DNA from: Methanoregula sp.
Lineage (GTDB): Archaea; Halobacteriota; Methanomicrobia; Methanomicrobiales; Methanospirillaceae
Direction: 5' to 3'
Assembly: GCA_028679075.1 (NCBI GenBank)
Contig: JAJRCF010000011.1
Coordinates: 9,217 to 73,216 of the forward strand
Length of the DNA: 64,000 nt
Positions 13,360 to 30,629 of this stretch are shown here, one piece after another. The stretch's first letter is position 1; the number at the start of each line of letters is the position of its first letter. A program made the position numbers and the translations under genes. The notes under the pieces are model-generated. The model had not been told where the DNA came from and searched no databases. It worked only from the letters and a program-made list of their open reading frames with translations.

Positions 13360-13548
13360 ACCGCGGCGTCTTGAATAATTCCTTTGAGAACTATCTTGGA
13401 TGAAGGGGGGAATCGTAAGATATCCGATGAATGATTTCATGTTTTCAAAATTAACCGGTCAGAAAATGCAGGATAACCCGATCTGCCAGATCATTACTCG
13501 GACACAAAGGGAAGCTCTGTCCGGGGTAATCACGACAGACCTTAAGGA

Positions 13549-14493: not shown

Positions 14494-14495
14494 TC

Positions 14496-15548
14496 GTGGC
14501 TATAGTATCTGAAACCCCTTCAAATCAGGTGTCTCCATGGCATGGTCCCCTTGTCTCCATATGTATTCCCACTTATAACCGGGCAGATCTGATTACGACT
14601 GCCATTGAGAGCGCCTTAAGCCAGTCATATCGCAATATTGAGGTCCTTGTTGTGGACAATGCATCAACAGATTCAACGAATAAAGTAATTGCCCGTTATA
14701 ATGATGAACGGCTTCGTTATGTAAAAAACGAGAAAAACCTTGGCCTTTTCGGAAATTTTAATCGTTGTATTGAACTTGCCGGTGGTAAGTATATTCATAT
14801 TCTTCATTCGGATGATTGTATAGACCGGAAATTCACGGAGACCTGCGTTGATTTTTTAGAGGCCCATCCTGATGTAGCCATGACATTTGGTTCAGTTGAG
14901 CCATTCGTCAACAGCGGCGAGAGAAAAAATCGTCAATCGTCACCTCCGGTTATTTACCCGGTGCCCGAGGGATTCAGGAAAACACTGGAAGCCCGTAATT
15001 TCATAAGCTGCCCGACGGTTATGATGCGCAAGGACGTGTATGATTCTTATGGATATTATTCGCTTGAATATCCATATTCCGGAGATTTCTATCATTGGCT
15101 TCGTATTACCCGGCACTTCTCTGTGGCGTCCGTCCCGGATGCCAGACTCTATTACCGTACCGGTGATCATTCGGAGTCTTTCCTGCTGTTGTTTAAAACA
15201 CCCCTGGGATATATCGATATGATAAAGATCTATGTTCGTATCATCGATGAACTGGGTGAAGATCGGAGATTCTACCAGCGTGAACTTAACGCTGCATGTC
15301 AGCGACATATGCGTGATTGCCTGTTTGCAGGTATTGCCCGATATGAATCCATGACCGGGTATTCCTCCCTGATCTTTATTGGTTTTGCATTAAGCATGTG
15401 GTCCCTTATGAAACCCCAGTCAGTATCAGAGTGGATAAATAAAACCGGGAATTTTTTCCTGATTAGCGCAATAGCCTGTTTAACACTCGTTCCCGGGGGG
15501 CAATACATAACGAGAAAAATTTTCAGACTCGATACGAAAGGCTACTAA
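14496..15548 (+). CDS. Glycosyltransferase family 2 (GT-A)
   Basis: VSICIPTYNR, VVDNASTD and ILHSDD (DxD); hydrophobic C-terminus. Confidence 0.93.
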   Translation: MAIVSETPSNQVSPWHGPLVSICIPTYNRADLITTAIESALSQSYRNIEVLVVDNASTDSTNKVIARYNDERLRYVKNEKNLGLFGNFNRCIELAGGKYIHILHSDDCIDRKFTETCVDFLEAHPDVAMTFGSVEPFVNSGERKNRQSSPPVIYPVPEGFRKTLEARNFISCPTVMMRKDVYDSYGYYSLEYPYSGDFYHWLRITRHFSVASVPDARLYYRTGDHSESFLLLFKTPLGYIDMIKIYVRIIDELGEDRRFYQRELNAACQRHMRDCLFAGIARYESMTGYSSLIFIGFALSMWSLMKPQSVSEWINKTGNFFLISAIACLTLVPGGQYITRKIFRLDTKGY

Positions 15549-15998
15549 CTCTCCTCCTTCTTTTAATTAATAATGTTAACCTGCGATCCTCCGGAATTTC
15601 CTTGTTTTTGCCGTTTGAACTGTTTTATTGTCGAGAATAACCGGTACGTACCTGATGATACTTACTGATCCGTCTGCTGATTGTAACAATCCCGTTCGCG
15701 TTTCACGCAAAAAGATCTGTAATACTGATCTCCGGAATGAGTTGATAAGATCTGAATAAGCGTTCCTTCGGGAACAAGACGCGTATGCTGGAAATGAGTT
15801 TCGGGAAGTGCATTTATATCATGATTTTTCCCACGTGGAAATAGTTGATTTGTATCGAGGAAATTTCACGTGACAGAGATCCCTCGGAACTGCCACCTGG
15901 CTAAAATAGTCCTTTTGTATTTAATTATTGAGAATTTTCTTTCGGTCAGACCTTCGAAAGAGATAATAAAGTCTGCATTACATTATGTTGGGTAAGAA

Positions 15999-17234
15999 AT
16001 GAGTGAAAATCCACATATTTGCCGGTCCTGCGGGTCCGACGCATTAAAACCCATCATATCCCTGGGTGATCAACCCCTTGCCAATGCATTACGTACTGAA
16101 AAGGATCTGCCTATCCCTCAGAAAAAATATCCCTTGGAATTGGTTTTTTGCCCGAATTGCTCCCTGGTACAGATTACCGAGACAGTAAACCCGGAAGAAT
16201 TGTTTTCTGAATATCTTTATTTCTCTTCCTACTCAGATACCATGCTCCGGCATGCCCAATCTCTCTCTGCCCGCATTACCGAAAAGTACCATCTTTCGAA
16301 TGACTCTCTTGTAATTGAAATTGCGAGTAATGACGGATACCTGCTCCAGTATTTTAAAAAAGGAGGTATCCCGGTCTTAGGGATTGATCCCGCAAAAAAT
16401 ATTGTAAAAGTTGCCGAAGAGAAAGGAATTCCTACAAAATGCGCCTTTTTTAATCTCGAGACTGCCCGGGAACTGCGTAATGAAGGAAAGACCGGTGATA
16501 TCCTGCTGGGTCTCAATGTCCTTGCCCATCTGGCGGATCTCTCTGGTTTTATTGAAGGTGTGAAGATCCTTCTCAAGGAAAACGGAACCGCCGTTTTCGA
16601 AGTACCCTATGTTCGGGATATGATTACCCGAAATGAATTCGATACCATCTACCATGAGCATCTCTATTATTACTCGCTCATCTCTTTGAGAAATTTATTC
16701 AAAAACCACAATCTTGAAATTGTGGATGCAGAACAGGTTCCTGTCCATGGCGGTTCCCTGAGGGTATTTGTGCAGCATCACAAAGCCAGTATCCATCCAA
16801 GCACTCGGCTTGAGTCATTGCTGGCGGAAGAATATGAAGTGGGCCTCGATAAATTACGATATTATGAAGAATTCGGAAGAGAAGTTACACATCTCAAAGC
16901 CGATACCCTTACACTGTTGGCAGAATTAAAATCCCGGGGTAAAACCATTGTAGCATATGGTGCTGCAGCAAAAGGTAGTACCCTCCTGAATTATTACGGG
17001 ATTACCAAAGAAACCATAGATTATATCGGGGATCGCAGTCCGTATAAACAAGGGAAATATTTACCCGGTACACAAATTCCTATCGTCTCTCCGGACACTA
17101 TTGCTGAAACAAAGCCCGATTATATTTTCATTTTGCCTTGGAATCTCAAAGATGAGATTATGGATCAGTTAAAATATATAAAGGGCTGGGGGGGACACTA
17201 TATCATCCCAATCCCCCGTATCCAGGTGATATAA
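15999..17234 (+). CDS. NDP-hexose C-methyltransferase (SAM-dependent, Zn-binding N-terminus)
   Basis: CRSCGS and CPNCSLVQ zinc motif, EIASNDG, YHEHLYYYS, HGGSLR and YGAAAKG C-terminal domain. Confidence 0.88.
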   Translation: MSENPHICRSCGSDALKPIISLGDQPLANALRTEKDLPIPQKKYPLELVFCPNCSLVQITETVNPEELFSEYLYFSSYSDTMLRHAQSLSARITEKYHLSNDSLVIEIASNDGYLLQYFKKGGIPVLGIDPAKNIVKVAEEKGIPTKCAFFNLETARELRNEGKTGDILLGLNVLAHLADLSGFIEGVKILLKENGTAVFEVPYVRDMITRNEFDTIYHEHLYYYSLISLRNLFKNHNLEIVDAEQVPVHGGSLRVFVQHHKASIHPSTRLESLLAEEYEVGLDKLRYYEEFGREVTHLKADTLTLLAELKSRGKTIVAYGAAAKGSTLLNYYGITKETIDYIGDRSPYKQGKYLPGTQIPIVSPDTIAETKPDYIFILPWNLKDEIMDQLKYIKGWGGHYIIPIPRIQVI

Positions 17235-17236
17235 TA

Positions 17237-17767
17237 GTGATTTTCACTAAGACCCCCATCCATAATGTTTTTCTTATTCAGCCAGTGCCACTGCCCGATG
17301 AACGGGGTTTTTTTGCACGGACCTTCTGCAGGGAGGAATTTAAAGAACATGGACTCGATATTGAGATTGTCCAGTGCAATATTTCTCATAACAAAAAAAA
17401 AGGAACCCTGCGGGGAATGCATTACCAGATTCCGCCTTTTGAAGAAGCAAAGATAATATCCTGTACCAGAGGATCTATTTTTGATGTTGTGGTTGACCTG
17501 CGGAAAGATTCGCCGACATACCTCAACTGGCATGCGGAAAAATTAATTTCTGATTCAGATCGGATGCTTTACATTCCGAAAGGGTGTGCCCATGGTTTCC
17601 AGACGCTTGAGGATAATTCTCTTGTATACTACCAGATGGGAGAGTATTTTCACCCGGAATGCGCAAGAGGCTTGCGATGGAATGATCCTACGATCGGGAT
17701 TGTCTGGCCGGTTTCTATAATGGCTCTATCTGAAAAAGATAAAAGTTATGCGGATTTTGAAAAATAA
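17237..17767 (+). CDS. rfbC: NDP-4-keto-6-deoxyhexose 3,5-epimerase (RmlC/RfbC cupin)
   Basis: DERGFFARTF, KGTLRGMHYQ, DLRKDSPTY and LYIPKGCAHGFQTL. Confidence 0.9.
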   Translation: MIFTKTPIHNVFLIQPVPLPDERGFFARTFCREEFKEHGLDIEIVQCNISHNKKKGTLRGMHYQIPPFEEAKIISCTRGSIFDVVVDLRKDSPTYLNWHAEKLISDSDRMLYIPKGCAHGFQTLEDNSLVYYQMGEYFHPECARGLRWNDPTIGIVWPVSIMALSEKDKSYADFEK

Positions 17768-17918
17768 ATCAGGATTTTCTCACTAACGAACATTATCTTA
17801 TCGTTAAAAAGAGGAAAATATCAAGTCTCAAGACTTGCCCTGTTCTACAACCACTAATTTAATCTGTGTATACGCCGTGATATTATTTCCAAAGATATTT
17901 TATAGGTGCTATTACCGT

Positions 17919-19178
17919 ATGATTGATACCATAATTAAAAAAAATTCTGAACACTATTTTTGGATTATTGGCGGGGGTCTCCTACAATATCCTTTGATCC
18001 AAGAAGTTGATGATCTTGGATGTAAAGTGATTGTTTCAGATCGTAACCCGGAATGCATTTGTGCAAAAAAAGCAACCATCTTTCTTCCAATAGATATATT
18101 CGATGTTCAGAAACATCTCGAAGAAGGTTTTAAGCTAAAGGCATCTGGCATCAAAATTGACGGTGTGCTTGCGGCGGGCATTGATGCGACCGTGACCATG
18201 GCGGTGCTGGCACGGTCGCTCAATCTGCCCGGTGTTGATCCGGAGATCGCGTATATCACCAATAATAAGAACCTCTTCCGGGAAACGCTCCAGAAGTTGG
18301 GTTATCCCGTACCGAAATTCAGAGTGATTTCAGAATCAGATATAGGAAACATTGAATCCATCGCCAGCGAGATCGGGTATCCATTGATTATAAAAAATAC
18401 GGACAGCAGCGGCAGCCGGGGCACAAAGATATTTCTTAAGGAAGATCCTGAAGACATGCGGCTGATTGCAAAAACGGCAATTGTAGCATCCCGATCAAAA
18501 AGGGCCCTTGTTGAGGAATGCTGGATGGGTGAAGAATTTACGGTAGAAACCATTTTTGATAATAACGGCGGGTTCCATCCATGCTTCATTACGGATCGTT
18601 TTTTCGATAAGTCCCGGGGATATGCAATAGAACTGGGTCTTGGACACCCGACGAGATTACCTCCGGAAATACAACAGGAAATGTATGATCTTGTCAGGAA
18701 TGTTTCCCGGGACCTTGGGATAAAAATCGGTGCCGCGAAAGCTGACATGATTCTGACGCCAAAGGGACCACGTATTATCGAGATGACGGTACGCCTGTCA
18801 GGTGGTTTTGACTGCCAGTATCTCGTCCCGGCGACAACGGGAAAGAATGTCATGAGGGCGGCAATATTAACCGCTCTTGGAAAACCATTTCCTGAAAGTC
18901 TGCTTGTTGATAAAAAGCATCGCGTTGGCAGGACTGCCTCCATCTGGCCGGAACCCGGTAAAATTGTGAGAATCTCGGGTGTTGAAGAGGCATTGAAAAT
19001 TCCCGGTGTTGAGCACATTTTCTTCCGGTATAATGTCGGGGATACCATCGAACCTTACATGGATTGCACACGAAGAGTATGTTTTATTATTGTAACAGGC
19101 AGGGATGCACCAGATGCTGAAAAAACAATGAAGATTGCAATTGGGAAAATCCAGATCGATATCAAAAGGGAGCGATAA
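17919..19178 (+). CDS. ATP-grasp enzyme, L-amino-acid-ligase-like
   Basis: YPLIIKNTDSSGSRG, LVEECWMGEEFTVE and IIEMTVRLSGG, plus a LAL_C2-like C-terminus. ATG 17919 preferred over the longer ORF start. Confidence 0.8.
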   Translation: MIDTIIKKNSEHYFWIIGGGLLQYPLIQEVDDLGCKVIVSDRNPECICAKKATIFLPIDIFDVQKHLEEGFKLKASGIKIDGVLAAGIDATVTMAVLARSLNLPGVDPEIAYITNNKNLFRETLQKLGYPVPKFRVISESDIGNIESIASEIGYPLIIKNTDSSGSRGTKIFLKEDPEDMRLIAKTAIVASRSKRALVEECWMGEEFTVETIFDNNGGFHPCFITDRFFDKSRGYAIELGLGHPTRLPPEIQQEMYDLVRNVSRDLGIKIGAAKADMILTPKGPRIIEMTVRLSGGFDCQYLVPATTGKNVMRAAILTALGKPFPESLLVDKKHRVGRTASIWPEPGKIVRISGVEEALKIPGVEHIFFRYNVGDTIEPYMDCTRRVCFIIVTGRDAPDAEKTMKIAIGKIQIDIKRER

Positions 19179-19179
19179 T

Positions 19180-20283
19180 TTGAGAAGGGTCCTGTTAGTA
19201 TATGGAGCGGGTGCAATAGGCCGTGGTTATTTACCTTGGGTTTTCTCACCGCAGGAGTTCGATTATTATTATGTTGAGACAAATCCGGCAATCGCGAACC
19301 TCATAAACACCCAAAAACAGTTTACCACCTGCAGAATCCGGAATGGTGCTTATGAATGCATGACCGTGCCTGTCGTGCAGTGCTTCAGGCCCGGCGAAGA
19401 GACTGCAGTCATCGATAAAGCAGATGCAATTGTCACTGCGGTCGGACCAAGAAACATCTACCCGCTCAGCGAGAGCATAAAGGGGACGACAAAACCCGTG
19501 ATCTGTTGCGAGAATGATGCATCGATCCCCTCCCTTATTACTACCCTGACGGGAAATCCCAACGTAGTTTTTGCTATCCCCGATGTCATCACGTCAAATA
19601 CCGCCCCCCCGGAATTGCTGAATAAGGATCCTTTGAGCATTGTCACAGAAGACGGCACTTGTTACATTGATGAGCGCGTCTCATACCTTGGCGGGAACTG
19701 CATTTACATAAACCAGGATGAGCTTTCGAAGCAATGGATGGCGAAATTGTATCTCCATAATACCCCCCATTGCATTGCGGCATATCTCGGGTATATCCTT
19801 CAGGTCAACTATCTACACGAATCGATGAAAAATCCTCATGTCGACAGAATTGTGACCGGTGCAATGAATGAGATGCAACAACTTCTTGCAAAAAAATTTT
19901 TCATTGATCAGCAGTTTATCGGTTGGTACGCAGACAAAGAACTTCAGCGTTTCAGGAACTCGCTGCTATTTGATCCCATCAGCAGGGTTGCACGTGAACC
20001 CTTCCGTAAGCTCGCTCCGAATGAGCGATTGATAGGAGCTGCCCAGTTATGTGTCAGCTGCGGGATCATACCTCAGAATATCCTTCTGGGGATAATGGCA
20101 GCATTCTGTTATGATAACCCGGCTGATCCTGATGTTAATATCAAGTACCTCATGGATTCGCTCGCTCCAAAAGATTTCCTGAGGATTGCCATGCAGCTCA
20201 GGCCTGGAGAAGCACTTTACGAACTCCTGCTCAAGCGGTGGGACAATGATATTGGAACACTGAGGAACCTGAATGATATCTGA
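19180..20283 (+). CDS. Mannitol-1-phosphate 5-dehydrogenase-like (polyol-specific long-chain dehydrogenase)
   Basis: YGAGAIGRG, VTAVG, ICCEN, KLYLHNTPH, RFRN and RVAREPFRKL-x4-RL all match MtlD motifs. TTG start one base after the upstream stop. Confidence 0.8.
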   Translation: MRRVLLVYGAGAIGRGYLPWVFSPQEFDYYYVETNPAIANLINTQKQFTTCRIRNGAYECMTVPVVQCFRPGEETAVIDKADAIVTAVGPRNIYPLSESIKGTTKPVICCENDASIPSLITTLTGNPNVVFAIPDVITSNTAPPELLNKDPLSIVTEDGTCYIDERVSYLGGNCIYINQDELSKQWMAKLYLHNTPHCIAAYLGYILQVNYLHESMKNPHVDRIVTGAMNEMQQLLAKKFFIDQQFIGWYADKELQRFRNSLLFDPISRVAREPFRKLAPNERLIGAAQLCVSCGIIPQNILLGIMAAFCYDNPADPDVNIKYLMDSLAPKDFLRIAMQLRPGEALYELLLKRWDNDIGTLRNLNDI

Positions 20284-21067
20284 ACGTGAAAAAACTCTTG
20301 AACTGGCGATGAAAGCTGCCGTATCCGCCGGCAGCCTCCTGTTGGAATATTCAGGCGACCGTGTCAAGACCTCCCCGAAAGAATCTCTGCGGGATATCGT
20401 AACCGAAGTTGACATGTATGCGGAAAAAAAGGTCATCAGCATACTCCGGAAGGCGGATCCCGGATGCCAGATCCTCACTGAAGAGACCGGCCGGCTTACC
20501 GGGACCCGCGGGGATAAATTATGGATTGTGGATGCCCTTGACGGCACAGTCAACTACGTCAACCACATCCCTCTTTATAATGTATCGATTTCATGTGTCG
20601 AAAAAGGCAATCCGGTTGTGGGAGTTATCTATAACCCGGTACTTGGTGACCTTTACTATGGTGCGGAAGGCTATGGTGTGTACCGGAATCACGTTCGGAT
20701 CAAAGTGAAGGATGGTGTTCCAGGGGAGTGCTTGTTTGCTGCCGCATTCTCTGGGAAAAAATATGATCCGGCAAGCAGGAGTGAAGAGTTCCTTGCATTT
20801 GAAAAAGTAAACGATACGTCAAGAGGCTGCCTTCGCACAGGTTCTGCATCCCTCAACCTTTCCTATGTTGCTGAAGGGCGGTTGGGTGGTTGCTGGGGTA
20901 AAGCAAACAAGATCTGGGATATCGCGGCAGGAATAATCATTGCGAATCTTGCTGGTGCCCATGTTGAATATCATTATCTTAATCCTGAAAAAAGCCTCGT
21001 CAGCTACGCCGTTGCAGTACCTTCTGCGTGGGACTATTTATCCGGAATAGTCCTGCCCCGGAAATAA
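20273..21067 (+). CDS. Inositol monophosphatase family (FIG) phosphatase
   Basis: DIVTEVD, LTEE, WIVDALDGTVNY and WDIAAG motifs. Confidence 0.9.
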   Translation: MISEREKTLELAMKAAVSAGSLLLEYSGDRVKTSPKESLRDIVTEVDMYAEKKVISILRKADPGCQILTEETGRLTGTRGDKLWIVDALDGTVNYVNHIPLYNVSISCVEKGNPVVGVIYNPVLGDLYYGAEGYGVYRNHVRIKVKDGVPGECLFAAAFSGKKYDPASRSEEFLAFEKVNDTSRGCLRTGSASLNLSYVAEGRLGGCWGKANKIWDIAAGIIIANLAGAHVEYHYLNPEKSLVSYAVAVPSAWDYLSGIVLPRK

Positions 21068-21195: not shown

Positions 21196-22257
21196 TTAAC
21201 CTGATTTTTCAATGGAAGTATCCGAATTGAAAGACTCTAAAATTTTTTCTGCGGTACGCTTCACCCCGTTTCCATCAACTTTTTGTATGGAAATTGTCGA
21301 CATCTCCTTGCATCTGGTTGGATTTGACACCAGATCGTTTATCGAATCCGCAATTTTTTCAGGAGAAATCCGTGCAAAATTTCCCAATGAGATCATCATT
21401 CCCTCTTGTACAAAAGACGATGCTGATTCGGCATGATCATCCGAAAGGCATAAAAACACCGCGACAACGCCCTGTGATGCCAGCTCATATGCAGTAACAC
21501 CGAACGATGCCACTGCAATATCCGCATTTCTCATGATATCAGCCATGTTTACGACATTATTCAGGACCTGGTAGTGATGTCGTGCATTCTTTAATAAATC
21601 CAGAAGGGCATCGTGATGGAAAAATGCAGGCCCGGTTATCACCTTGACATCAAATTCAGCGTCCAGCATCTCCAGTGCCTGAATTGCCGTGAGGGTCATT
21701 CGCTGAGGATCACTCCCCCCCATTGTAACAAGGATCACTGGCCTGAGATGGCGGGGCTTATCCTTCTTGACAGAAAATTCCGGCCTGATTAGGACCCATT
21801 CCCACCCGGAGAACAGTTTTCCTTTGAACCCGGCCCACTCCATCCGTTTAATCTGGGGGATCGGGGGATAAAAGGCAAGATCTGCAAGCAATCTCCGGTC
21901 GCTGATATCATCAATGGAAATGGTTTTTATACCTCTTTTTTTTATTTCCCTTACCAGTGCCAGGGGGAAATCGTCACGGATGTCCAGGATGAACCCCCAT
22001 GGCTGGTATTCGTCAATAATGCCCATAATCCATGAAAAATAATCAAAACGCATATCATTCTTTTCGGGTGTAAAAACACGGTAATTATGTTTTCTAATGA
22101 GATCAATTCCCTCCATCCCTTCCCGGACCGCAAACGCAATTTCACAGGAATGAACTGATCGCAATTCATCAGCAAGAGCAAGACATCGGACCGTATGTCC
22201 CATCCCCACCCCGGGCGAACCGTCACAGCGAATGAGGATGCGGCAGAGAGTCGTCAT
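21196..22257 (-). CDS. pseG: UDP-2,4-diacetamido-2,4,6-trideoxy-beta-L-altropyranose hydrolase (PseG/SpsG-like)
   Basis: RCDGSPGVGMGHTVRCLALA, TMGGSDP and MRNADIAV; pse gene context. Confidence 0.8.
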   Translation of the reverse strand: MTTLCRILIRCDGSPGVGMGHTVRCLALADELRSVHSCEIAFAVREGMEGIDLIRKHNYRVFTPEKNDMRFDYFSWIMGIIDEYQPWGFILDIRDDFPLALVREIKKRGIKTISIDDISDRRLLADLAFYPPIPQIKRMEWAGFKGKLFSGWEWVLIRPEFSVKKDKPRHLRPVILVTMGGSDPQRMTLTAIQALEMLDAEFDVKVITGPAFFHHDALLDLLKNARHHYQVLNNVVNMADIMRNADIAVASFGVTAYELASQGVVAVFLCLSDDHAESASSFVQEGMMISLGNFARISPEKIADSINDLVSNPTRCKEMSTISIQKVDGNGVKRTAEKILESFNSDTSIEKSG

Positions 22258-23207
22258 TTCACCGGCCAGTTGCTGGGATTCAGTAAGAATGCATCCTGCA
22301 GAGCAAGATCCCTAGCTTCTCTCACCATTGATTCAGAAAATGGGCCGGATTCACTGACGCCTAATGCCTCAAGGAGTTCCTCACTCGTACGAATCCCAAC
22401 CAGCACACTTGATACTTCCGGTGAAGCTATGCAGAAACGAACTGCCACTCCAGGTAATTTTTCCCAGGTACCTGCCAATGTGTCCCTGCACATGAGTGCC
22501 GCTGCTTTCAGTGCAGACAACTCCGGGGGCAACCATTCGGATTTACAGGTTAAGACTCCTTTCAGAAGAGCAGATCGGACAATTATTCCGATACCGGCCT
22601 TCTTTGCGGCCGGGAAGACGTGCGCGGCCATCCGCTGGTCAAGGAGATTGTATGCCACCTGGAGCACGTCGAAACATCCCGCCTCAATTACGGCCAGCGC
22701 TTCCGCTTCAGTATATACCGAAGCCCCAATAAAATGAATGATTCCTTCATCTTTTGCCCTGAGAAGAAATTTGGCCATAGCCCCGTCATTAATTACCGGC
22801 AGAGTCGCATTATGTATCTGAACGATATCCAGATAATCCCGCTTGAGATTTTTCATACTGGATGCAAGTGAGGCATCAATGGCTGCAGATAACTCATTTC
22901 CCTTCCGGGCTTCACCCCCGGCACCCGGTGGAATGGAAACTTTTGTTGCAATGTAGCAATCGGAACGTTCTCCAATTGCCTCTCCAAGACATAACTCACT
23001 GGTTCCATAATTGGGGGCTGTATCAAAGAAATTGATCCCTGCATCAGCTGCCTTGCGAAGCAGCTGAATCACTTCCAGTTCTTCAGGACGACCGAAATTT
23101 CCCGGAACTTCTATTCCATAGTCCACGCCGAGGGATACCGTGCCGAACGAGATCGTTGATACGGATAGTCCGGTCCGTCCGAGTTTTTTATAGAACATCG
23201 GGAACAT
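22254..23207 (-). CDS. Aldo/keto reductase
   Basis: LGRTGLSVSTISFG, GINFFDTAPNYG, IATK and LKRDYLDIVQIH. Confidence 0.9.
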   Translation of the reverse strand: MFPMFYKKLGRTGLSVSTISFGTVSLGVDYGIEVPGNFGRPEELEVIQLLRKAADAGINFFDTAPNYGTSELCLGEAIGERSDCYIATKVSIPPGAGGEARKGNELSAAIDASLASSMKNLKRDYLDIVQIHNATLPVINDGAMAKFLLRAKDEGIIHFIGASVYTEAEALAVIEAGCFDVLQVAYNLLDQRMAAHVFPAAKKAGIGIIVRSALLKGVLTCKSEWLPPELSALKAAALMCRDTLAGTWEKLPGVAVRFCIASPEVSSVLVGIRTSEELLEALGVSESGPFSESMVREARDLALQDAFLLNPSNWPVK

Positions 23208-23215
23208 CCATCCAT

Positions 23216-24529
23216 TCAGGTTAACCGGTAAAATCCGCTTCTCTGTGGCGATCCTTTCAGAAGACTCCGGACCGATCCTTTTTTATGGGCATCTGCAATC
23301 CGGGAGAAGGCATCCTTCGTGACCGATATATAGGCATCAATATGTTTTTTCGTATGAGCGAATGATGGTTTAAACTGGGTGTAGGCAAGATATCTCTTTT
23401 CGAGCATAATCTGCGTAAACAGCGTGGCCATCTCTAATTTTTCATCGCCTTCAATGGAGAAATGGTTCAACGTGGACAGGCCGCTGATATGGACGGGTAA
23501 ACCCGCCTCGTCAGCTGCGTTCTGCCACCCAACCATAACTGAATTGCCGATGGATATAATGTGATCATCGACATGCTTCTCCTGGTATTTCCTGATCGTT
23601 GCGAGTGCAGCGGCAGGTCCGATGCGTTCCGTCCAGTTAGTGCTGCTGATAAATGTTGACTGGGCTGATTCCATGACTTCCGCGGTTCCTACTACCGCTG
23701 CCATTGCATACCCGTTGGACATCGCCTTTGCGAACACAGCAATATCCGGGTTGACTCCCAATGTCTGGTGAATTCCCCCGGGACACATCCGGAACCCGGT
23801 AGTTATCTCGTCGAATACCAGCACAGCATCCTGTTCCCTGGCGATTTTCTTGACCTTTTCGAGGAATCCCGGTTCCGGCGTCTGGTCCCTGCGGGGTTCC
23901 ATGACAATGGCTGCAATGCGGCCGTTATTTCTCGCCACAATCTCTTCCAGTTGTTCGATGTGGTTGTAGTGGAAGGGCAGGGCACTCCCCAGAAGCCCCC
24001 GCGGCACACCGGAGGGTTCGAGACCTGGCATGAGGTGTCCGTCCAAGGCATGATCCTCACTGATATTTGCAGCCAGGTACCAGTCGTACCACCCGTGATA
24101 GCCACAGAATGCAATGATATCCTTGCCGGTATGTGCCCGGGCGATCCTGACCGCTACTGCCATTGCCTCCCCCCCGGATCGGGCATACCGGACCATATTT
24201 GCCCATGGATGCAGCGAGCAGAGAAGTTCAGCCAGTTCCACTTCTTCTGGTGCATTCAGGGTACACTGTACACCATTTCTGAGTGCCGCAATCACAGCCC
24301 TGTCAACATCTGGGTCAGCATAGCCGAGGATGCAGGCGCCAACCCCCATGATACTCATGTCCGTGTAGGTAATCCCTGCAAGATCTGTAACCTTCACACC
24401 TTTCGCTTTTGCATAATAGGCCGGCCAGAGGTCCGGTAAAAACATTTCAGGACGTTTGGAAAGTAGTTGCGTGCCACCGGGAATCAGTTTCTTGCCTTTC
24501 TTGTATAATTCCTGACCATCCATTCTCAT
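23216..24529 (-). CDS. Class III PLP aminotransferase (GSA-aminomutase-like, not HemL)
   Basis: FCGYHGW, IAAIVMEP, VFDEITTGFR and PDIAVFAKAMSNG (PLP lysine). Confidence 0.88.
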   Translation of the reverse strand: MRMDGQELYKKGKKLIPGGTQLLSKRPEMFLPDLWPAYYAKAKGVKVTDLAGITYTDMSIMGVGACILGYADPDVDRAVIAALRNGVQCTLNAPEEVELAELLCSLHPWANMVRYARSGGEAMAVAVRIARAHTGKDIIAFCGYHGWYDWYLAANISEDHALDGHLMPGLEPSGVPRGLLGSALPFHYNHIEQLEEIVARNNGRIAAIVMEPRRDQTPEPGFLEKVKKIAREQDAVLVFDEITTGFRMCPGGIHQTLGVNPDIAVFAKAMSNGYAMAAVVGTAEVMESAQSTFISSTNWTERIGPAAALATIRKYQEKHVDDHIISIGNSVMVGWQNAADEAGLPVHISGLSTLNHFSIEGDEKLEMATLFTQIMLEKRYLAYTQFKPSFAHTKKHIDAYISVTKDAFSRIADAHKKGSVRSLLKGSPQRSGFYRLT

Positions 24530-25290
24530 TCACCTTTCAGTAATTCCTGATCTTTCTTTAATGATTTCAGATATCCTTCATTTCGAAGAATGTCGGCATT
24601 GATGTTCACGAGATCCGGTTCTTTTTCCAGGAGCCGGAGAATATCTTCAGCAAGGAAAATTTCTTTCTCCTTATAGAGCCGTGTGTATATTTTCCTGATA
24701 AACTGAATGTCTTCCGGCTCATCAACAGTCCACCTCATATGGCCGAGGTTGCTGAATTTTTTAAACTGACCCAGTTTGAATTTTTCCGGGTGATTGATAA
24801 TATACGGTCCCACGTGTTCCCGTTCAGAAGGAAGTTTTGCATTATTCCATGCATCCCTGAGCGCTGAATAGGAAAACACGGTGACATCCAGCCCATCAGG
24901 GAATTCCCCGGATAACCAATATGCGTCAAAGTGGCCTTTAAAAAACCCAGTAATCGTCTCATCAACAATTACAGGATCAATCACGGGACAATCCGCAGTG
25001 ATTCTTACGACCGGATCGGCATTAAATTTCGTTGCAGCCTGGTAGTAACGGTCGAGAACATCGTCCTCGCTTCCTGCAAACGATCGTACGCCAGCGGATT
25101 CTGCCAGATCGACGATTGCCCTGTCCTCGGGACGGTTGGATGTTGCAACTACAATCTGCTGGACTGTTTTACACTTTTTGATCCGGTTTATGACATGCCA
25201 TACCAAAGGTTTTCCGGAGAGCTCCATCAGGACTTTTCCCGGTAACCTGCTGGATCCCATCCGTGCCTGGATGATTACGGTTGTTGTCAT
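24526..25290 (-). CDS. SpsF-type cytidylyltransferase (probable CMP-nonulosonate synthetase)
   Basis: IIQARMGSSRLPGKVL, GSEDDVLDRY, VRITADCP, EREHV and RWTVDEPED. Confidence 0.85.
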   Translation of the reverse strand: MTTTVIIQARMGSSRLPGKVLMELSGKPLVWHVINRIKKCKTVQQIVVATSNRPEDRAIVDLAESAGVRSFAGSEDDVLDRYYQAATKFNADPVVRITADCPVIDPVIVDETITGFFKGHFDAYWLSGEFPDGLDVTVFSYSALRDAWNNAKLPSEREHVGPYIINHPEKFKLGQFKKFSNLGHMRWTVDEPEDIQFIRKIYTRLYKEKEIFLAEDILRLLEKEPDLVNINADILRNEGYLKSLKKDQELLKGE

Positions 25291-26150
25291 GAGGCATCTC
25301 TGAATGATTCACGAATTTTCATAACCGGTCGTAAGCCGTCGGAGGGATCCGCTCTCCAGTCGCGCTCCACCATCTCGTTGGCATCGGGTTTCTTCTCCCC
25401 GGTTCCATCCGAAGAGATCCCGGTATGTATTGTAGTGATTACATTCTTCATCTCTTCAGGAAGCCAGCAATGCCCCGTTGAATATTCCTCTCCTTTCCCA
25501 TCGAGATCAAGGTGGAACTCAATCATCGTTGCCCCCCAGTGATGAACTGCGCGGTAAATGACAGGAGGAGATACGGTGTGGTCTGACCATCCGACAGAAC
25601 CTCCAAATACTTTTCTGAGGGTTTCCATTGCTGCCAGGTTGCATTGCCCGGGAGGTGTTGGATATACCGAAGCACAGTGGAGCAAGGTGAGATCCTTGCA
25701 ACCGGCCTTTTTGAGAACAGTTACTGCATCTCTGACTTCATCGAGAGTTGCCATTCCCGTTGAGAGGACTACCGGTTTTCCTGTTTTCGCACAGGAAACA
25801 AGAAGATCTTTCCAGAGCAGTTCGTAGGATGCGATTTTATAGAATTCCACGAAGGGCTCCAGTTCATGGACCGCTTCAAGATAAAACGGAGTGCAGGAAA
25901 AAAGGATGTCATGTTTCCTGCACTTGTCGGCAAGATAGGGCAGGAAAGAAACCGGCAGTTCCCATTGTTTTCTTTTCCTGATATCCTCACGCTTTCGGAT
26001 GATTTCGGGTGCAAACAATTCATCAATCTTAAATAACTGGAATTTTACTGACTCGCAGCCGATATCTGCTGCCGTTTCAATAAACCGGAAACATCTCTCC
26101 AGATTCTGGTTGTGATTACTGGATACTTCTGCAATAAAATGTGGTTTCAT
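25287..26150 (-). CDS. pseI: Nonulosonic acid synthase (PseI/NeuB family), short form without the C-terminal SAF domain
   Basis: IAEVSSNHNQ, VKFQLF, YKIASYE, VLSTGMA, LLHCASVYP, GWSDHT and IEFH; only 287 aa. Confidence 0.85.
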   Translation of the reverse strand: MKPHFIAEVSSNHNQNLERCFRFIETAADIGCESVKFQLFKIDELFAPEIIRKREDIRKRKQWELPVSFLPYLADKCRKHDILFSCTPFYLEAVHELEPFVEFYKIASYELLWKDLLVSCAKTGKPVVLSTGMATLDEVRDAVTVLKKAGCKDLTLLHCASVYPTPPGQCNLAAMETLRKVFGGSVGWSDHTVSPPVIYRAVHHWGATMIEFHLDLDGKGEEYSTGHCWLPEEMKNVITTIHTGISSDGTGEKKPDANEMVERDWRADPSDGLRPVMKIRESFRDAS

Positions 26151-27319
26151 GATCCGTCCACCCCGAGAATTTTACATATTGCTGATATCACACGGTTAAC
26201 ATCCTCATCATCCATCCTCGGAAAAATCGGGAGTGAGAGTTCATGGTGATAATAATTCTCCGCATGAGGGAACTGGCCTTCCCTGAAGCCAAAATGATTC
26301 TGGTAGTACGGCTGCTGATGGATGGGGATATAATGTACCTGAGTGAGGATGCCCTGTTCTTTGAGTTTTGACATCATGCCCTTCCGGTCGCATCCGGTAC
26401 ATTGTATCGGGTAGATATGGAATGCATGCCGGGAATCCGGCCACCGAGGCCTGGGAGGGATAATGATGCCGGGCAGATCCTGGAATACCTGATCATACGC
26501 GTCAGCGATCTCATTCCGGCGTGTTATAAACCCCTCCAGTTTACTGAATTGGGAAATACCGAGAGCGCACTGGATATCCGTTATCCGGTAGTTATATCCA
26601 AGTTCCTGCATCTCGTAATACCACGACCCTTCATTACGGGTGAGTTTCTTCGGATCCTTTGTGGTCCCATGACTCCGTAAAAGTCGGAGCCGTTCGGTAT
26701 ACTCATCGCTGTCCGTGACAATAATACCGCCCTCTCCTGTTGTAATATGTTTGACAGGATGGAAGGAAAACATGGTCATATCTGCTTCCTTCCCAACGGA
26801 CATTCCGTACCGTCGTCCTCCTAAAGCATGAGCGGCATCTTCGACTATCACCAGGTCATGCCTGTCGGCAATATCCCGGATCTCACGCATATCCATAGGA
26901 TATCCTGCCATGTCAACCGGCGCAATCACCTTTGTGCGATCCGTGATGGCATGCTCGATGAGTTGTGTATTGATGCAGTATGTAGCCGGGTCAATATCAA
27001 CGAATACCGGAATACCTCCAAGGTACACTGCGGAATTTGGCGTTGCCACGAATGAAATGGGGGTGGTGATCACTTCATCGCCCGAAGATACACCTGCAGC
27101 AAACATCGCCCCGTGGAGAGCCGATGTACCTGAATTAAATGCCACAGCATATCGTGTGCCGGCATATTTGGCGATCTTATCTTCGAACTGTTCAATCAAC
27201 GGTCCCTGTGTGAGCCAGTCGCCTTTCAACACTGCGCACACTGCGTTGATATCGTTGTCATCCACCCATTGTGATCCATAGGGAATGGTTTTCATCGGCA
27301 TCTGTCCGGACTTTTGCAT
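26147..27319 (-). CDS. pseC: UDP-4-amino-4,6-dideoxy-N-acetyl-beta-L-altrosamine transaminase (DegT family)
   Basis: IPYGSQW, WLTQGP, EDAAHALG, FSFHPVKHITTGEGG, LGYNYRITDIQCALG and QVHYIP. Confidence 0.9.
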   Translation of the reverse strand: MQKSGQMPMKTIPYGSQWVDDNDINAVCAVLKGDWLTQGPLIEQFEDKIAKYAGTRYAVAFNSGTSALHGAMFAAGVSSGDEVITTPISFVATPNSAVYLGGIPVFVDIDPATYCINTQLIEHAITDRTKVIAPVDMAGYPMDMREIRDIADRHDLVIVEDAAHALGGRRYGMSVGKEADMTMFSFHPVKHITTGEGGIIVTDSDEYTERLRLLRSHGTTKDPKKLTRNEGSWYYEMQELGYNYRITDIQCALGISQFSKLEGFITRRNEIADAYDQVFQDLPGIIIPPRPRWPDSRHAFHIYPIQCTGCDRKGMMSKLKEQGILTQVHYIPIHQQPYYQNHFGFREGQFPHAENYYHHELSLPIFPRMDDEDVNRVISAICKILGVDGS

Positions 27320-27320
27320 C

Positions 27321-28301
27321 TCAATAGGAGGACAAGTTAATCATGCGATTGAAATCCTTTTTGTCAAGCCACTGGGTATTGTTATCGCTGCTGTACCTGA
27401 AACCTTCCGGCAGGCTCCGACCTCCGGTTCTGCCATTTTTCCAGAATTTCAGTTCAGGTTCGATCACAAAGAAGGTATCATACTCTTTCGTGTGGCGGGC
27501 CTCGTCTTCTGTAAGAAGGATCTCATGGAGCTTCTCTCCGGGCCGGATACCGATAGTCTCGATCTTTGCGTCAGGTGCCATTGCATGGGCCAGATCAATC
27601 ACTTTCATGCTGGGGATTTTCGGGACAAAGACTTCCCCGCCGGTCATGATGGGAAGACATTTTCTGACAAACTGGACGCCTTCTTCCAGTGTCAGCCAGA
27701 ACCGGGTCATGCGTTCGTCGGTAATGGTAAGTCGCCCGGATTTTTTTTGTTCGAGAAACAGCGGGACAACGCTTCCCCGGCTTCCTACAACGTTTCCGTA
27801 CCGTACACAGGAAAACTTGGTGGGGTGGATATCTCCTGAATAGGAATTTCCCTGCATAAACAATTTTTCTGCAACCATTTTTGTGGATCCATAGAGATTC
27901 ACCGGGTGAACTGCCTTGTCTGTGCTGAGCGCGAGGACCCGATCGACATTGTTGTCAATAGCGGTGTCGATGATATTGATAGAACCATTAATATTGGTCT
28001 TCACCGCTTCAATAGGATTGTATTCACAGGCAGGTACCTGCTTGAGAGCAGCTGCATGAACAACAATATCTACACCATTCATCGCTCGGGAAAGCCGTTC
28101 TTTATCCCTTACATCTCCGATAAAAAACCTGATCCGATCATCCGGAAACAGTTTTTCCGTTTCATACTGGAGCATTTCACCCCGGGAATAGATACGAATG
28201 CTTTTGGGATTGTCTTCTCGTAAAAGAGTTTTCAGGAACGCTCTTCCGAATGATCCTGTACCCCCGGTGATGAGTATTGTCTTATCGTTGAAATATGACA
28301 T
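27321..28301 (-). CDS. pseB: UDP-N-acetylglucosamine 4,6-dehydratase (inverting)
   Basis: ITGGTGSFG, HAAALKQVPACEYNP, LSTDKA, NLYGSTK, RYGNVVGSRGSV, MTRFW and GIRPGEKLHE. Confidence 0.93.
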   Translation of the reverse strand: MSYFNDKTILITGGTGSFGRAFLKTLLREDNPKSIRIYSRGEMLQYETEKLFPDDRIRFFIGDVRDKERLSRAMNGVDIVVHAAALKQVPACEYNPIEAVKTNINGSINIIDTAIDNNVDRVLALSTDKAVHPVNLYGSTKMVAEKLFMQGNSYSGDIHPTKFSCVRYGNVVGSRGSVVPLFLEQKKSGRLTITDERMTRFWLTLEEGVQFVRKCLPIMTGGEVFVPKIPSMKVIDLAHAMAPDAKIETIGIRPGEKLHEILLTEDEARHTKEYDTFFVIEPELKFWKNGRTGGRSLPEGFRYSSDNNTQWLDKKDFNRMINLSSY

Positions 28302-28682: not shown

Positions 28683-30629
28683 ATGCAGATCAGAGACCGG
28701 TGCGTAATGGTAAAAACACTATTTTTTTTAGAAGACCCCAAAAAAATTGATTGGGTCATTCAGGATAGTGTGAAAAGCACAGGGCAATCAGTCTTTATTT
28801 CACTCTCTGCGACTGCATCATATGCGTATGAAAGGTACCAGATCCCTTATAAATCGATCCGGGACTTCGGTGGCGGGGAGGAACGATACCAGCAGGGTTT
28901 GGAAAATTTTCAAAGATTTGATCGGATAGTGACAATTCTTGATAAGGAACTAACTCTTCATCATAACAATCTTACACTGACACCGGCTCGTTATTCAATA
29001 TATAATCTCAAAATTCTTTTTGATACACTTTGGAATGCAATTCAAATTTTAAAACAGATTATTGATATAGAACAGCCGGATTTTATTCGTCTTTATGCAA
29101 TACCCCGGGTAAGATCCGTGAATAAGGTCTGTGTATTCTCAAACAACGAATCGATATATACCGAAGTTTTGAACATGTCTGGATGGAATGTTCAGATCGA
29201 AATAATTCAGGAAACAGAACCTGACCGTATTGATCAAGGGATTACAGGAAGAAGTTACACACGTTTTTCCCGTTTAATGGACTGGATCAAAGAACAGGAT
29301 CTTTTGTTTAATCTGGGGCTGATCAGTAAACGAGAAGGTATCGGATTGGCAACGCTGGCGTTATATTATCATATTATCGTCATGCGCCGGAACCCCGTCC
29401 TTATTTATAATAGCGGATACAATTGGGATGATTCCCTGATTGAACTCTTCCGCGAAGGGATGGTTCCGGTATACCGGATAAGGGATGAGTTCTTAACCAA
29501 TGATATTACAGATGACACGGCATCCTGCGAGGAGGTTCGTAATATATGCGGCGTTCATCCCGGAATGAGGGAATTTGATACTATCCTCGGCATCGATGTA
29601 TCCACATTCTTTTTTGAAAGGCTTTCGGAAATTGTCGGACGTGCTCTTCAGGAATCAGTAGTTGCATATACCTATGCCCGCAAAAAAATCCGACGGAAAA
29701 ACATTCAATGCCTCCTCCTCGCAGCGTGTGATACAACTATGGGTCATGCTATTGTCCAGGCAGCACATGATACAGAAATTCCCGTTGTCTCATGGCAGCA
29801 CGGAGGTGCAGGATATAGTTATCATCCGCTGATGTCATTTATTGAATTTGTCAATTCTGACTGGCATTTTGTTTTTGGGGAAGGCGTTGCCACGAGTTAC
29901 CTGTCCACCTCAAAGTGTATCGGTCTTAAGAAAATCCCCCGTTTTGTCCCCGTGGGATCGAGTTCTCTTGACATCTTTGATAGAAATAAACGAAAAACCG
30001 CGATTAAACCGGATAACGGACCGGTTGTTTATATTACTACTGCGTACCTGCGGAATATCTACATGAATTCCGGGAAAGATGACCTTGGCGTGTTTGACGA
30101 ACATCTTTGGGATATACAACAGCATATCCTCAATCTTGCGAAGAATAACCCTGATAAAGAGTTTATCATAAAATTGCATCCCACTCATATCGATAAAGAA
30201 CCCCTCAATGGGTTTGTGATTGATCATAACATACGCAATGTGAAACTTATCACCTCAGAAATGACCATACGGGAATTAACGGATATTGCCGGAATAATGA
30301 TATTTGACCTTATTTCAACGGGAATCCTACAGGTACTTACCTCAGAACTCCCAGTTTTCGTTTATCCGGGCCTGTATAAAGTCGATCCTGATCCTCTGAT
30401 GCAATTGATGAAACGTGCTTACGTGAGTTATGACAAGAATCGGTTTGTCGCCATGATCCAACAATTCATTGACGTTCATTCGGTAGATTCCTTCGATAGC
30501 GTAGATGTAAAAAATACCGATTTTCTGATAAGATACGGAACTGATCCTGTCCATCATAATAGTGCTGTTGAAGCAGTAACGGCCTTGAAAAAAATCCTGC
30601 TTCAGGAATACCCGTTTCCTCGTGAATAG
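28683..30629 (+). CDS. Large GT-B-like protein, candidate nonulosonate transferase (LIC12162-like); alternative start 28707
   Basis: WQHGG, VPVGSS, IIKLHP and DLISTG motifs resemble the HP and S/T motifs of CMP-sugar transferases. Divergent from pseB. Confidence 0.5.
   Translation: MQIRDRCVMVKTLFFLEDPKKIDWVIQDSVKSTGQSVFISLSATASYAYERYQIPYKSIRDFGGGEERYQQGLENFQRFDRIVTILDKELTLHHNNLTLTPARYSIYNLKILFDTLWNAIQILKQIIDIEQPDFIRLYAIPRVRSVNKVCVFSNNESIYTEVLNMSGWNVQIEIIQETEPDRIDQGITGRSYTRFSRLMDWIKEQDLLFNLGLISKREGIGLATLALYYHIIVMRRNPVLIYNSGYNWDDSLIELFREGMVPVYRIRDEFLTNDITDDTASCEEVRNICGVHPGMREFDTILGIDVSTFFFERLSEIVGRALQESVVAYTYARKKIRRKNIQCLLLAACDTTMGHAIVQAAHDTEIPVVSWQHGGAGYSYHPLMSFIEFVNSDWHFVFGEGVATSYLSTSKCIGLKKIPRFVPVGSSSLDIFDRNKRKTAIKPDNGPVVYITTAYLRNIYMNSGKDDLGVFDEHLWDIQQHILNLAKNNPDKEFIIKLHPTHIDKEPLNGFVIDHNIRNVKLITSEMTIRELTDIAGIMIFDLISTGILQVLTSELPVFVYPGLYKVDPDPLMQLMKRAYVSYDKNRFVAMIQQFIDVHSVDSFDSVDVKNTDFLIRYGTDPVHHNSAVEAVTALKKILLQEYPFPRE

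Follow-up and report, generated by a model that had tools for sequence, protein, structure and literature searches.

The stretch analysed here, 64,000 nucleotides of a Methanoregula sp. contig (JAJRCF010000011.1; hereafter the window), contains at positions 17919–21067 three plus-strand genes for an ATP-grasp carboxylate ligase, a reductase resembling mannitol-1-phosphate dehydrogenase (M1PDH) and a phosphatase of the inositol monophosphatase (IMPase) family. We find that this trio is a real, conserved and coupled unit whose arrangement is far beyond chance, and that it is most likely a horizontally acquired sub-module of a surface-sugar cassette of the pseudaminic acid (Pse) type found in more than ten phyla. 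Nonulosonic acids (NulOs), among them pseudaminic and legionaminic acid (Leg), coat flagella, S-layers and capsules, and their N-acyl and other decorations set charge, phage recognition and immune recognition. To our knowledge, the enzymes that install non-acetyl decorations on NulOs are almost entirely unknown.

The gene trio and its products

The first gene (17919..19178, +; Pfam LAL_C2 and ATP-grasp_4) encodes an ATP-grasp carboxylate ligase of the L-amino acid ligase (LAL) type with 419 residues and runs from an ATG at 17919 to a stop codon at 19176–19178. After a single spacer base at 19179, the second gene (19180..20283, +; Pfam Mannitol_dh and Mannitol_dh_C), which encodes the M1PDH-like protein of 367 residues, a putative NAD(H)-type ketose-phosphate reductase, starts with a TTG at 19180 and stops at 20283. 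The third gene (20273..21067, +; Pfam Inositol_P), for a putative sugar-phosphate phosphatase of the IMPase family with 264 residues, overlaps the second by 11 bp, with its ATG at 20273 and its stop at 21067. A preliminary description of this DNA had proposed three coupled genes with a 1-bp gap and an 11-bp overlap, and both its coordinates and its junctions are as it gave them. As read from the sequence, a site resembling a Shine-Dalgarno (SD) element lies ahead of each gene (GGTG at 17905–17908 for the first, AGGGAG at 19166–19171 for the second and GAGGA ~6 nt ahead of 20273 for the third), and a possible archaeal promoter precedes the first gene (17863..17910, +), with an A/T-rich TTTAAT box near 17866 and TTTTATA at 17898. 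A scan for sigma-70 promoters and terminators, which is unsuited to archaea, gave counts not above those of shuffled sequence. Because all three proteins score far under every NCBIfam equivalog cut-off, we treat them as family members and not as recognisable orthologues of named enzymes.

The ligase matches Pfam LAL_C2 with an E-value of 5e-16 (59.1 bits; cut-off 29.4), and K159 and the Mg/ATP motif E288-M-T-V-R292 are invariant in a 19-sequence alignment. It has the ATP-grasp fold, the conserved ATP-binding lysine, the E-x-(N/T)-x-R Mg site and the LAL_C2 domain of the L-amino acid ligase type. The top match of its AlphaFold model (pLDDT 92.3) in the Protein Data Bank (PDB) is the LAL BL00235 (3vot; TM 0.83), which is also the best match by sequence (E 1e-15), and the fold search also placed PurT, a formate-dependent ATP-grasp enzyme, among its structural neighbours. 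Fold searches with this model and with that of the M1PDH-like protein confirmed the LAL and M1PDH families and gave no substrate clue. For the ligase, the genomic context argues for an acceptor other than a second L-amino acid.

The dehydrogenase is encoded by the sole Mannitol_dh gene of the host genome, and its model (pLDDT 94.2) is most similar to the M1PDHs of S. aureus and Shigella (5jnm and 3h2z, TM 0.78–0.79). The M1PDH motifs KxxxxNxxH and RxxxRKxxxx(E/D)R have been defined from the structures of AbMtlD and SaM1PDH and by mutagenesis, and in a further M1PDH motif, V(D/N)RxV, the Asp or Asn touches the terminal C1-OH and the Arg is invariant (PMC9168451, PMC6623548). In the window protein, K189, N194 and H197 together with the catalytic N112 of the N-domain align with E. 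coli MtlD and are invariant in 22 family members. D265, R269, R272, R276, K277, E282 and R283 are likewise present, the Arg and Lys residues being invariant, and the family has kept DxxxR, RVxR (the Arg of which binds the C3/C4 hydroxyls) and the phosphate-selectivity motif RxxxRKxxxx(E/D)R. In place of V(D/N)RxV, family members in every context type have PDVITSNTA instead, beside which the window protein has a 15-residue deletion relative to E. coli MtlD. Of the MtlD motifs that the preliminary description had listed as intact, GAGAIGRG and RVAREPFRKL are there, but the catalytic motif reads K189-x4-N194-x2-H197 and not K-x3-N. Among nine NCBIfam MtlD models the highest score is 137.3 bits (cut-off 404), and all nine stay below cut-off (their equivalog cut-offs span 269–719). 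Because neither the equivalog scores nor the V(D/N)RxV motif, both of which were tested, place the protein with MtlD, we do not regard it as MtlD proper.

In a dehydrogenase tree, calculated with a quick version of the tree search, E. coli MtlD sits on a branch of 3.56 changes per site. The trio-type dehydrogenases form approximately one clade (SH-aLRT 93), with one sequence, from a locus in Terriglobales (L055), unresolved, and the window protein nests among bacterial sequences from the candidate phyla radiation (CPR), Aerophobetes and Planctomycetota. Mannitol as the product, as envisaged in the preliminary description, is disfavoured by this separate clade far from MtlD and by the difference at the motif that touches the terminal carbon of the substrate. 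As judged from its residues, the enzyme would reduce a keto compound that has six carbons and a distal phosphate, with fructose-6-phosphate as a candidate substrate; the alignment indicates that the C1 side of its pocket is altered relative to M1PDH, and the cofactor is probably NAD(H), given that strand 2 ends in an acidic residue (E33). Of note, five Methanimicrococcus genomes (L056–L060) have a solo family member (43–45% identity, motif VIASNTA) with no IMPase, ligase or NeuB gene within 10 kb.

The phosphatase matches Pfam Inositol_P with an E-value of 6.5e-44 (150.9 bits; cut-off 27). Its metal-site residues E70/E71, D87, D90-G-T92 and W215-D216 are invariant in 18 orthologues, and they belong to the metal-binding signatures of the IMPase family, EE (E70/E71), WxxDPxDGT-like (W84-IVD87-AL-D90-G-T92, with Ala for Pro) and WDxAAG (W215-D216-IAAG220), all of which are invariant in the same set. 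Its top PDB matches are bacterial IMPase/SuhB proteins, and it reaches none of the named equivalogs (SuhB/IMPase, HisN, CysQ and archaeal FBPase/IMPase), scoring 125 bits against 332 for IMPase and 111 against 264 for FBPase/IMPase.

Recurrence of the trio and its neighbourhoods

A large protein collection holds 1866 relatives of the dehydrogenase, many of them bacterial and 55–69% identical. We compared gene contexts from Pfam-labelled contigs, from 80 genome loci found with the dehydrogenase as probe (one per species) and from 80 metagenome loci found with the ATP-grasp protein as an independent probe; single loci are labelled L001 and so on. At 73 distinct bacterial or archaeal loci an ATP-grasp gene is followed by an M1PDH-like gene, the IMPase gene comes next in 67 of these, and most of the others lie at contig ends. 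The stop/start junctions of the trio elsewhere overlap or abut, as they do in the window. The preliminary description had staked its proposal on co-occurrence of the genes elsewhere, and such co-occurrence is borne out by this recurrence in the same order at 73 loci.

To describe the neighbourhood we used the 24 well-flanked loci, those with at least 6 kb upstream and at least 5 kb downstream. In these loci, IMPase (24/24) and NeuB (23/24) are followed in frequency by a CMP-transferase (18/24), a PseG-like protein (17/24), PseC (16/24), PseB (13/24), an aldo/keto reductase (AKR; 13/24), a class-III aminotransferase (12/24) and Methyltransf_23 (10/24), with a C-methyltransferase once and RmlC not at all (1/24 and 0/24), and these counts underestimate diverged neighbours because the tblastn probes were the window's own proteins. 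The usual bacterial order, as in L003 and L095, is PseB, PseC, NeuB, CMP-transferase, aminotransferase, AKR, PseG-like protein, methyltransferase, ATP-grasp, M1PDH-like protein and IMPase; the window shares these neighbours, and its trio is in the opposite orientation. The locus in Terriglobales mentioned above (L055) is a minimal cassette of PseB, PseC, NeuB, CMP-transferase, PseG, methyltransferase and the trio, bordered by genes for an initiating transferase, a flippase and a polysialyltransferase-like protein, and L088 is an island for flagellin glycosylation that includes flagellin itself and a Maf protein. In two loci (L003 and L062) the class-III aminotransferase is fused to the cytidylyltransferase.

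The trio is 62–72% identical to that of the window (ATP-grasp, 69–72%) in loci where NeuB is only 31–39% identical. The trio is thus better conserved than its partners, which indicates that the three genes travel together from one kind of NulO cassette to another. A search of 150 further genomes (33 genera) from the order of the host, Methanomicrobiales, did not turn up the trio, which points to horizontal transfer. These observations bear on the idea that the genes serve to make free mannitol as a compatible solute, in the order fructose-6-phosphate, mannitol-1-phosphate and mannitol as with Acinetobacter MtlD, the ATP-grasp protein being unrelated or making an aminoacyl-polyol solute. The M1PDH motifs and the phosphate pocket are intact, a phosphatase comes next, and the two-step logic of reduction and dephosphorylation is established for AbMtlD (PMC9168451). 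Yet the trio always lies in NulO or glycan clusters, here in a low-GC surface-glycan island, always includes a ligase for carboxylate activation, a step for which solute synthesis would have no use, and was not found in the 150 other genomes of the order; moreover, the family is distant from true MtlD, with a changed C1 pocket. We therefore consider mannitol formation of this kind very improbable and a compatible-solute role of the trio unlikely, and the stand-alone framing as a free polyol or compatible solute in the preliminary description gives way to a sub-module of a NulO cassette. The same description had reported no genes of the phosphotransferase system (PTS) or for mannitol uptake in the window, and no such Pfam family is present in the 30 window open reading frames (ORFs) that we scanned, which span positions 116–37850; its statement stands for that part.

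In the window, the trio converges with a minus-strand Pse operon (28301–21196), and the ends of the two are 129 bp apart. The operon begins with PseB, the inverting 4,6-dehydratase (27321..28301), and the PseC aminotransferase (26147..27319), both of which exceed their NCBIfam equivalog cut-offs (503.8 bits against 407.75 and 501.5 bits against 423.5). It continues with a NeuB-family synthase of 287 residues that lacks a SAF domain (25287..26150; Pfam NeuB 1.4e-60), for which the NCBIfam models NeuB (181.8 bits) and PseI (176.4 bits; cut-off 340.25) both stay below cut-off, and a CMP-ulosonic acid cytidylyltransferase (24526..25290; CTP_transf_3, Pfam 4e-32) with a KdsB-like N-terminal part and a weak PseF match (30.6 bits against 205.7). 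A class-III aminotransferase resembling GSA aminomutase (23216..24529; Pfam Aminotran_3; PRK06209 with 245 bits and GntE, both below cut-off), an AKR (22254..23207; Pfam Aldo_ket_red 3e-39) and a PseG-like UDP-sugar hydrolase with a GT28 C-terminal fold (21196..22257; NCBIfam PseG 143.6 bits against 153.55; Pfam Glyco_tran_28_C) complete it. We note that the lone NeuB of Pelagibacter sp. is also held in a 287-residue open frame and that Shewanella SfmA has 290 residues. Divergent from pseB lies a gene for a candidate nonulosonate transferase of 648 residues (28683..30629, +), residues 470–539 of which weakly match the NCBIfam BFO_1060 glycosyltransferase domain (30.7 bits); BFO_1060 is a member of the Tannerella Pse/Leg transferase family (PMC5420450). 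No acetyltransferase family, and hence no PseH, was found in the 30 scanned ORFs, which cover the whole island, and in the host assembly, which is ~90% complete, the best genome-wide PseH match reaches 24.9 bits against a cut-off of 93.1.

The host is a methanogen of the order Methanomicrobiales, as judged by the topoisomerase VI subunit A encoded in the window, which is 75% identical to that of Methanolinea mesophila and whose other named relatives all come from this order. The GC content is 46.9% in the trio and 45.7% in the island at 5892–30629, against 55.6% in the rest of the window, and the Pfam scan shows this low-GC island to be packed with glycan genes. Directly upstream of the trio, and on the same strand, are a C-methyltransferase (TylC3-type, Methyltransf_13/14) and an RmlC-like epimerase (15999–17767, +). 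One could accordingly assign the trio to the upstream plus-strand CDP-hexose route with C-methyltransferase and 3,5-epimerase (11582–17767), in which it would decorate a branched 6-deoxy sugar. The trio begins just 152 bp downstream of the RmlC-like gene, and a locus in Solirubrobacteraceae (L011) also has a C-methyltransferase (45% identity) and RmlC (51% identity) near the trio. The intergenic region has A/T boxes and an SD site of its own, however, and the near absence of C-methyltransferase and RmlC from the well-flanked loci, set against the 23 with NeuB, makes this assignment highly unlikely. At the island edge (2654–5857, +) we also observed a 466-residue ORF that has no Pfam match and a second ATP-grasp gene (ATPgrasp_Ter/PRK06849-like, 383 residues), which overlaps a gene for a PHP-domain phosphoesterase (224 residues) and so forms another pair of ligase and phosphoesterase.

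Proposed function and competing readings

On the basis of the observed gene structure, conserved linkage and intact catalytic motifs and of the missing PseH, we propose with moderate confidence that the ligase, the sugar-phosphate reductase and the phosphatase make a non-acetyl side group and attach it to a Pse-type NulO. This agrees with one of the options in the preliminary description, a glycan substituent, which is favoured by the glycan island beside the Pse cassette and by the linkage to NeuB in nearly all well-flanked loci. We infer the substrates, the bond formed and the order of the steps in this pathway, which may be pictured as follows. PseB, PseC, the PseG-like protein, NeuB and the cytidylyltransferase would provide the Pse-type sugar and, because the cassette has no PseH, its amino group at C7 (at C4 in the hexose precursor) would not carry the usual acetyl. 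The substrate of the M1PDH-like protein would be a keto compound of six carbons that bears a phosphate at its distal end and is reduced at the keto group; fructose-6-phosphate is the only universally available candidate, and the altered C1 pocket would accommodate an analogue modified at C1, for example a 2-keto-6-phospho sugar acid. The ATP-grasp enzyme would activate a carboxylate as an acyl phosphate and link the reduced polyhydroxylated unit to an intermediate of the NulO pathway, and the IMPase would strip the phosphate handle before or after ligation (after, if it acts as Cj1435 does). In most bacterial versions, one or two methyltransferases dependent on S-adenosylmethionine (SAM), encoded just upstream, would O-methylate the side group.

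Relatives of the trio in which the ligase slot is filled differently are informative. In sister clades that are linked to NeuB, CMP-transferase and aminotransferase genes (L061–63, L069, L071, L078 and L080; for example L061:7313-12926, L062:1131-12597 and L078:2258-6029), an AMP-binding adenylating enzyme is encoded directly upstream of the M1PDH-like protein and IMPase, accompanied in L062 (7077–7451) and L069 by an AcpS-like phosphopantetheinyl transferase. Two unrelated carboxylate-activating ligases in one slot argue that carboxylate activation is integral to the unit. Conversely, some Pse clusters without M1PDH-like and IMPase genes contain a relative of the ATP-grasp enzyme (46–50% identity), which is followed there by a cupin resembling the C-terminal part of phosphomannose isomerase (PMI), a HAD phosphatase and a DJ-1/PfpI protein (L175:7995-11055, L170:4545-7015, L164 and L177), which again amounts to a converting enzyme of the sugar-phosphate type with a phosphatase. 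In a third, large clade (L018–L053; 41–49% identity), the M1PDH-like gene is always followed by IMPase and NTP_transferase genes, and neither a ligase nor NeuB is present. The neighbours are a UxaA-like sugar-acid dehydratase, an ALS/POX-type thiamine pyrophosphate (TPP) enzyme, a short-chain dehydrogenase/reductase (SDR) and a DegT aminotransferase (for example L035:4689-13764 and L021:7472-15425), and the hosts are Burkholderiales, Omnitrophota, Bdellovibrionota and Myxococcota. This clade looks like an undescribed nucleotide-sugar pathway, and because the pair occurs in it without a ligase, we regard the M1PDH-like protein and IMPase as a reusable element of sugar-modification pathways that reduces and then dephosphorylates and that frequently neighbours enzymes acting on sugar acids. 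Among individual relatives, we observed in L062 a NeuB–GNAT fusion and a 1053-residue fusion of cytidylyltransferase, APH-type kinase and class-III aminotransferase, in L175 two genes within the NulO cluster, for a formyltransferase-like protein and a PIG-L de-N-acetylase, and in L061, L063, L071 and L078 weaker C-methyltransferase matches.

Separate occurrence of ligase and pair could also mean that the M1PDH-like protein and IMPase serve the NulO backbone itself, for example by preparing or dephosphorylating an alternative precursor or product of NeuB as in the Kdn-9-phosphate and Neu5Ac-9-phosphate routes, while the ligase separately N-acylates the sugar, taking formate, acetate, an amino acid or another common acid. 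The pair is tied to NeuB, CMP-transferase and aminotransferase even in loci that lack the ATP-grasp gene (L061–63, L071 and L078), some Pse clusters have an ATP-grasp relative and not the pair, and PurT is a structural neighbour of the ligase; furthermore, NeuB is encoded twice in one locus (L001), within 10 kb of which PseB and PseC are missing. We nevertheless judge this improbable, because Pse is a 9-deoxy sugar whose known route has no phosphorylated intermediate, because a ligase always lies directly ahead of the pair in NulO contexts, and because most cassettes have a single NeuB and complete PseB, PseC and PseG-like genes. A second NeuB as the source of the keto-acid substrate was considered separately and rejected, since most cassettes have only one.

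With respect to the chemistry of a side-group module, we lean slightly towards an amide at N7 with a polyhydroxy acid, the ATP-grasp enzyme taking the place of PseH, while regarding this specific form as rather doubtful. It is favoured because cassettes of the ATP-grasp type lack GNAT proteins (no acetyltransferase was found in those with Pfam-labelled contexts) and both types of ligase habitually take small acids, because a variety of hydroxyacyl groups is known on Pse and Leg with no enzymes known for it, and because of the O-methylation and of the missing C1-site Asp, with which a carboxylate at C1 would clash. We rejected the formation of an N-glyceroyl group from glycerate, 3-phosphoglycerate or phosphohydroxypyruvate, because the ligands for the sugar hydroxyls and the distal phosphate pocket are kept and a chain of about six carbons is needed. 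For the N-glyceroyl group of Tannerella Pse, the genes are still unknown (PMC6120980).

Several observations weigh against a side-group module or against its N-acyl form. The trio in the window is convergent with the Pse operon and shares its strand with the C-methyltransferase/RmlC pair that ends 152 bp upstream, and the complete Pelagibacter genome L029 has its sole NeuB ~450 kb away from the trio. Because the host assembly is incomplete, PseH may have been missed. Some of the cassettes with an adenylating ligase do contain a GNAT protein (L061, L071 and, fused to NeuB, L062), so that the ligase need not replace PseH. A canonical M1PDH yields a polyol phosphate, which has no carboxylate, and the N-acyl form therefore needs a keto-acid phosphate; we know of no methanogen or CPR bacterium that makes such a compound. 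In Shewanella oneidensis, the operon sfmABCDE encodes a NeuB-like protein, a TPP enzyme, an SDR, a methyltransferase and an ATP-grasp_4 protein, deletion of the ATP-grasp gene lowers the flagellin mass, and the flagellin glycan consists of mono-acetyl Pse and a nitrogen-free C9H16O7 unit with 0–2 O-methyl groups (PMC3765264). The outer unit of this glycan breaks off easily in the ion source, the inner Pse behaving as though it bore a free amine (PMC3765264), and an ester or glycosidic link thus fits it better than an amide.

The last of these points leads to an arrangement that follows the logic of Cj1435–1438 strictly. In Campylobacter jejuni, Cj1438C joins a phosphorylated amine derived from a sugar phosphate to a sugar carboxylate, and Cj1435 then removes the phosphate (PMC11800397). 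By analogy, the ATP-grasp enzyme would activate a carboxylate belonging to the sugar itself, either C1 of the NulO or that of a uronic acid in the glycan. A polyol or amino-polyol phosphate made from fructose-6-phosphate by the M1PDH-like protein would be the nucleophile for an amide or ester, the amine coming from the class-III aminotransferase in cassettes that have one, and the IMPase would dephosphorylate the product after ligation. There is then a verified precedent for ligating a phosphorylated nucleophile from a central sugar phosphate and dephosphorylating it afterwards; fructose-6-phosphate is the only universal substrate that matches the conserved M1PDH pocket, and the module of PMI-like cupin and HAD phosphatase also plausibly begins at it. 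The class-III aminotransferase of 12 of the 24 well-flanked cassettes, at times fused to the cytidylyltransferase, and the Shewanella glycan, in which a labile, nitrogen-free outer unit and an apparently free amine fit an ester, are consistent with such a scheme as well. On the other hand, the aminotransferase is missing from half of the cassettes, LAL-type ATP-grasp enzymes normally activate small acids, and an adenylating ligase with an AcpS-like phosphopantetheinyl transferase implies a carrier-loaded small acid and not a sugar carboxylate. We also know of no described NulO that is amidated or esterified at C1. On balance, we consider this arrangement unlikely, though it deserves more weight than backbone synthesis.

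Returning to the side-group module, a full-text literature search brought up no account of NulO clusters with an M1PDH-like or IMPase gene and yielded analogies only (Shewanella sfm, Cj1435–38 and Tannerella), and in the literature searched the trio is, as the preliminary description had it, without a published account. We tentatively suggest, with some reserve, that the trio in SAR11, CPR, Planctomycetota, Acidobacteriota, Desulfobacterota and one methanogen represents an undescribed, widely transferred route that replaces PseH and decorates Pse with a polyhydroxy acyl or polyol group, often O-methylated, derived from a six-carbon sugar phosphate.

Significance and relation to known systems

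The trio is a concrete three-enzyme candidate for a module that decorates NulOs with non-acetyl groups, found at 73 loci in many phyla, including relatives of the abundant marine SAR11 as well as a methanogen, and its distinct M1PDH-like clade can be recognised by the signature motif PDVITSNTA. If the proposal is correct, the products would be a new class of NulO derivative and the PDVITSNTA clade would represent a new specificity among the polyol-specific long-chain dehydrogenases. The predicted masses start from a base of 274.12 Da for Pse5Ac7N, to which ~162 Da (3-deoxyhexonoyl), 164 Da (hexitol) or 178 Da (hexonoyl) would be added, with a further 14 Da per O-methyl group.

Compared with known systems, the trio is part of a variant of the NulO biosynthesis and modification cassette. 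It shares with the canonical PseB-PseC-PseH-PseG-PseI-PseF pathway the PseB and PseC equivalogs and the PseG-like, NeuB-family and CTP_transf_3 proteins in one operon, but in the window no PseH was found, NeuB has no SAF domain, the cytidylyltransferase is KdsB-like, and the class-III aminotransferase, the AKR and the trio are additional. The dehydrogenase resembles MtlD/M1PDH in fold, in KxxxxNxxH with the catalytic Asn, in DxxxR and RVxR and in the Arg-rich phosphate motif, and AbMtlD also in that a phosphatase acts next; it differs in its low identity (20–23%), its separate deep clade and its changed C1-contact motif. The phosphatase of the MtlD system, moreover, is of the HAD type and not of the IMPase family, and its context is a PTS or osmolyte one and not a NulO cassette with a ligase. 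For the ATP-grasp enzyme, L-amino acid ligases (BL00235, BacD/YwfE and RizA) are the closest matches in sequence and structure and share the LAL_C2 domain, yet identity is ~14–22% and their context is that of peptide antibiotics, whereas here it is glycan biosynthesis.

The logic of the unit, assembled from known superfamilies, appears to resemble that of the Shewanella sfm operon and of Cj1437/Cj1438/Cj1435. The sfm operon likewise has a short NeuB-like gene, a SAM methyltransferase, an ATP-grasp_4 protein of ~412 residues and no clear PseH, but the companions are a TPP enzyme and an SDR there and an M1PDH-like protein and IMPase here. In the C. jejuni HS:2 capsule system of Cj1437, Cj1438 (with its C-terminal amidoligase) and Cj1435, a sugar phosphate is converted to a phosphorylated unit, which is ligated with ATP and then dephosphorylated; an enzyme that would convert a central sugar phosphate, a ligase and a phosphatase are encoded together by the trio too, with conserved adjacency at the 73 loci, and an aminotransferase is often present in the cassettes as well. 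The converting enzyme is a transaminase (Cj1437) there and an M1PDH-like reductase here, the phosphatase is a HAD protein (Cj1435) there and an IMPase here, and the sugar is glucuronate there and that of a Pse-type NulO cassette here, with homology demonstrated only at the level of the general ligase class.

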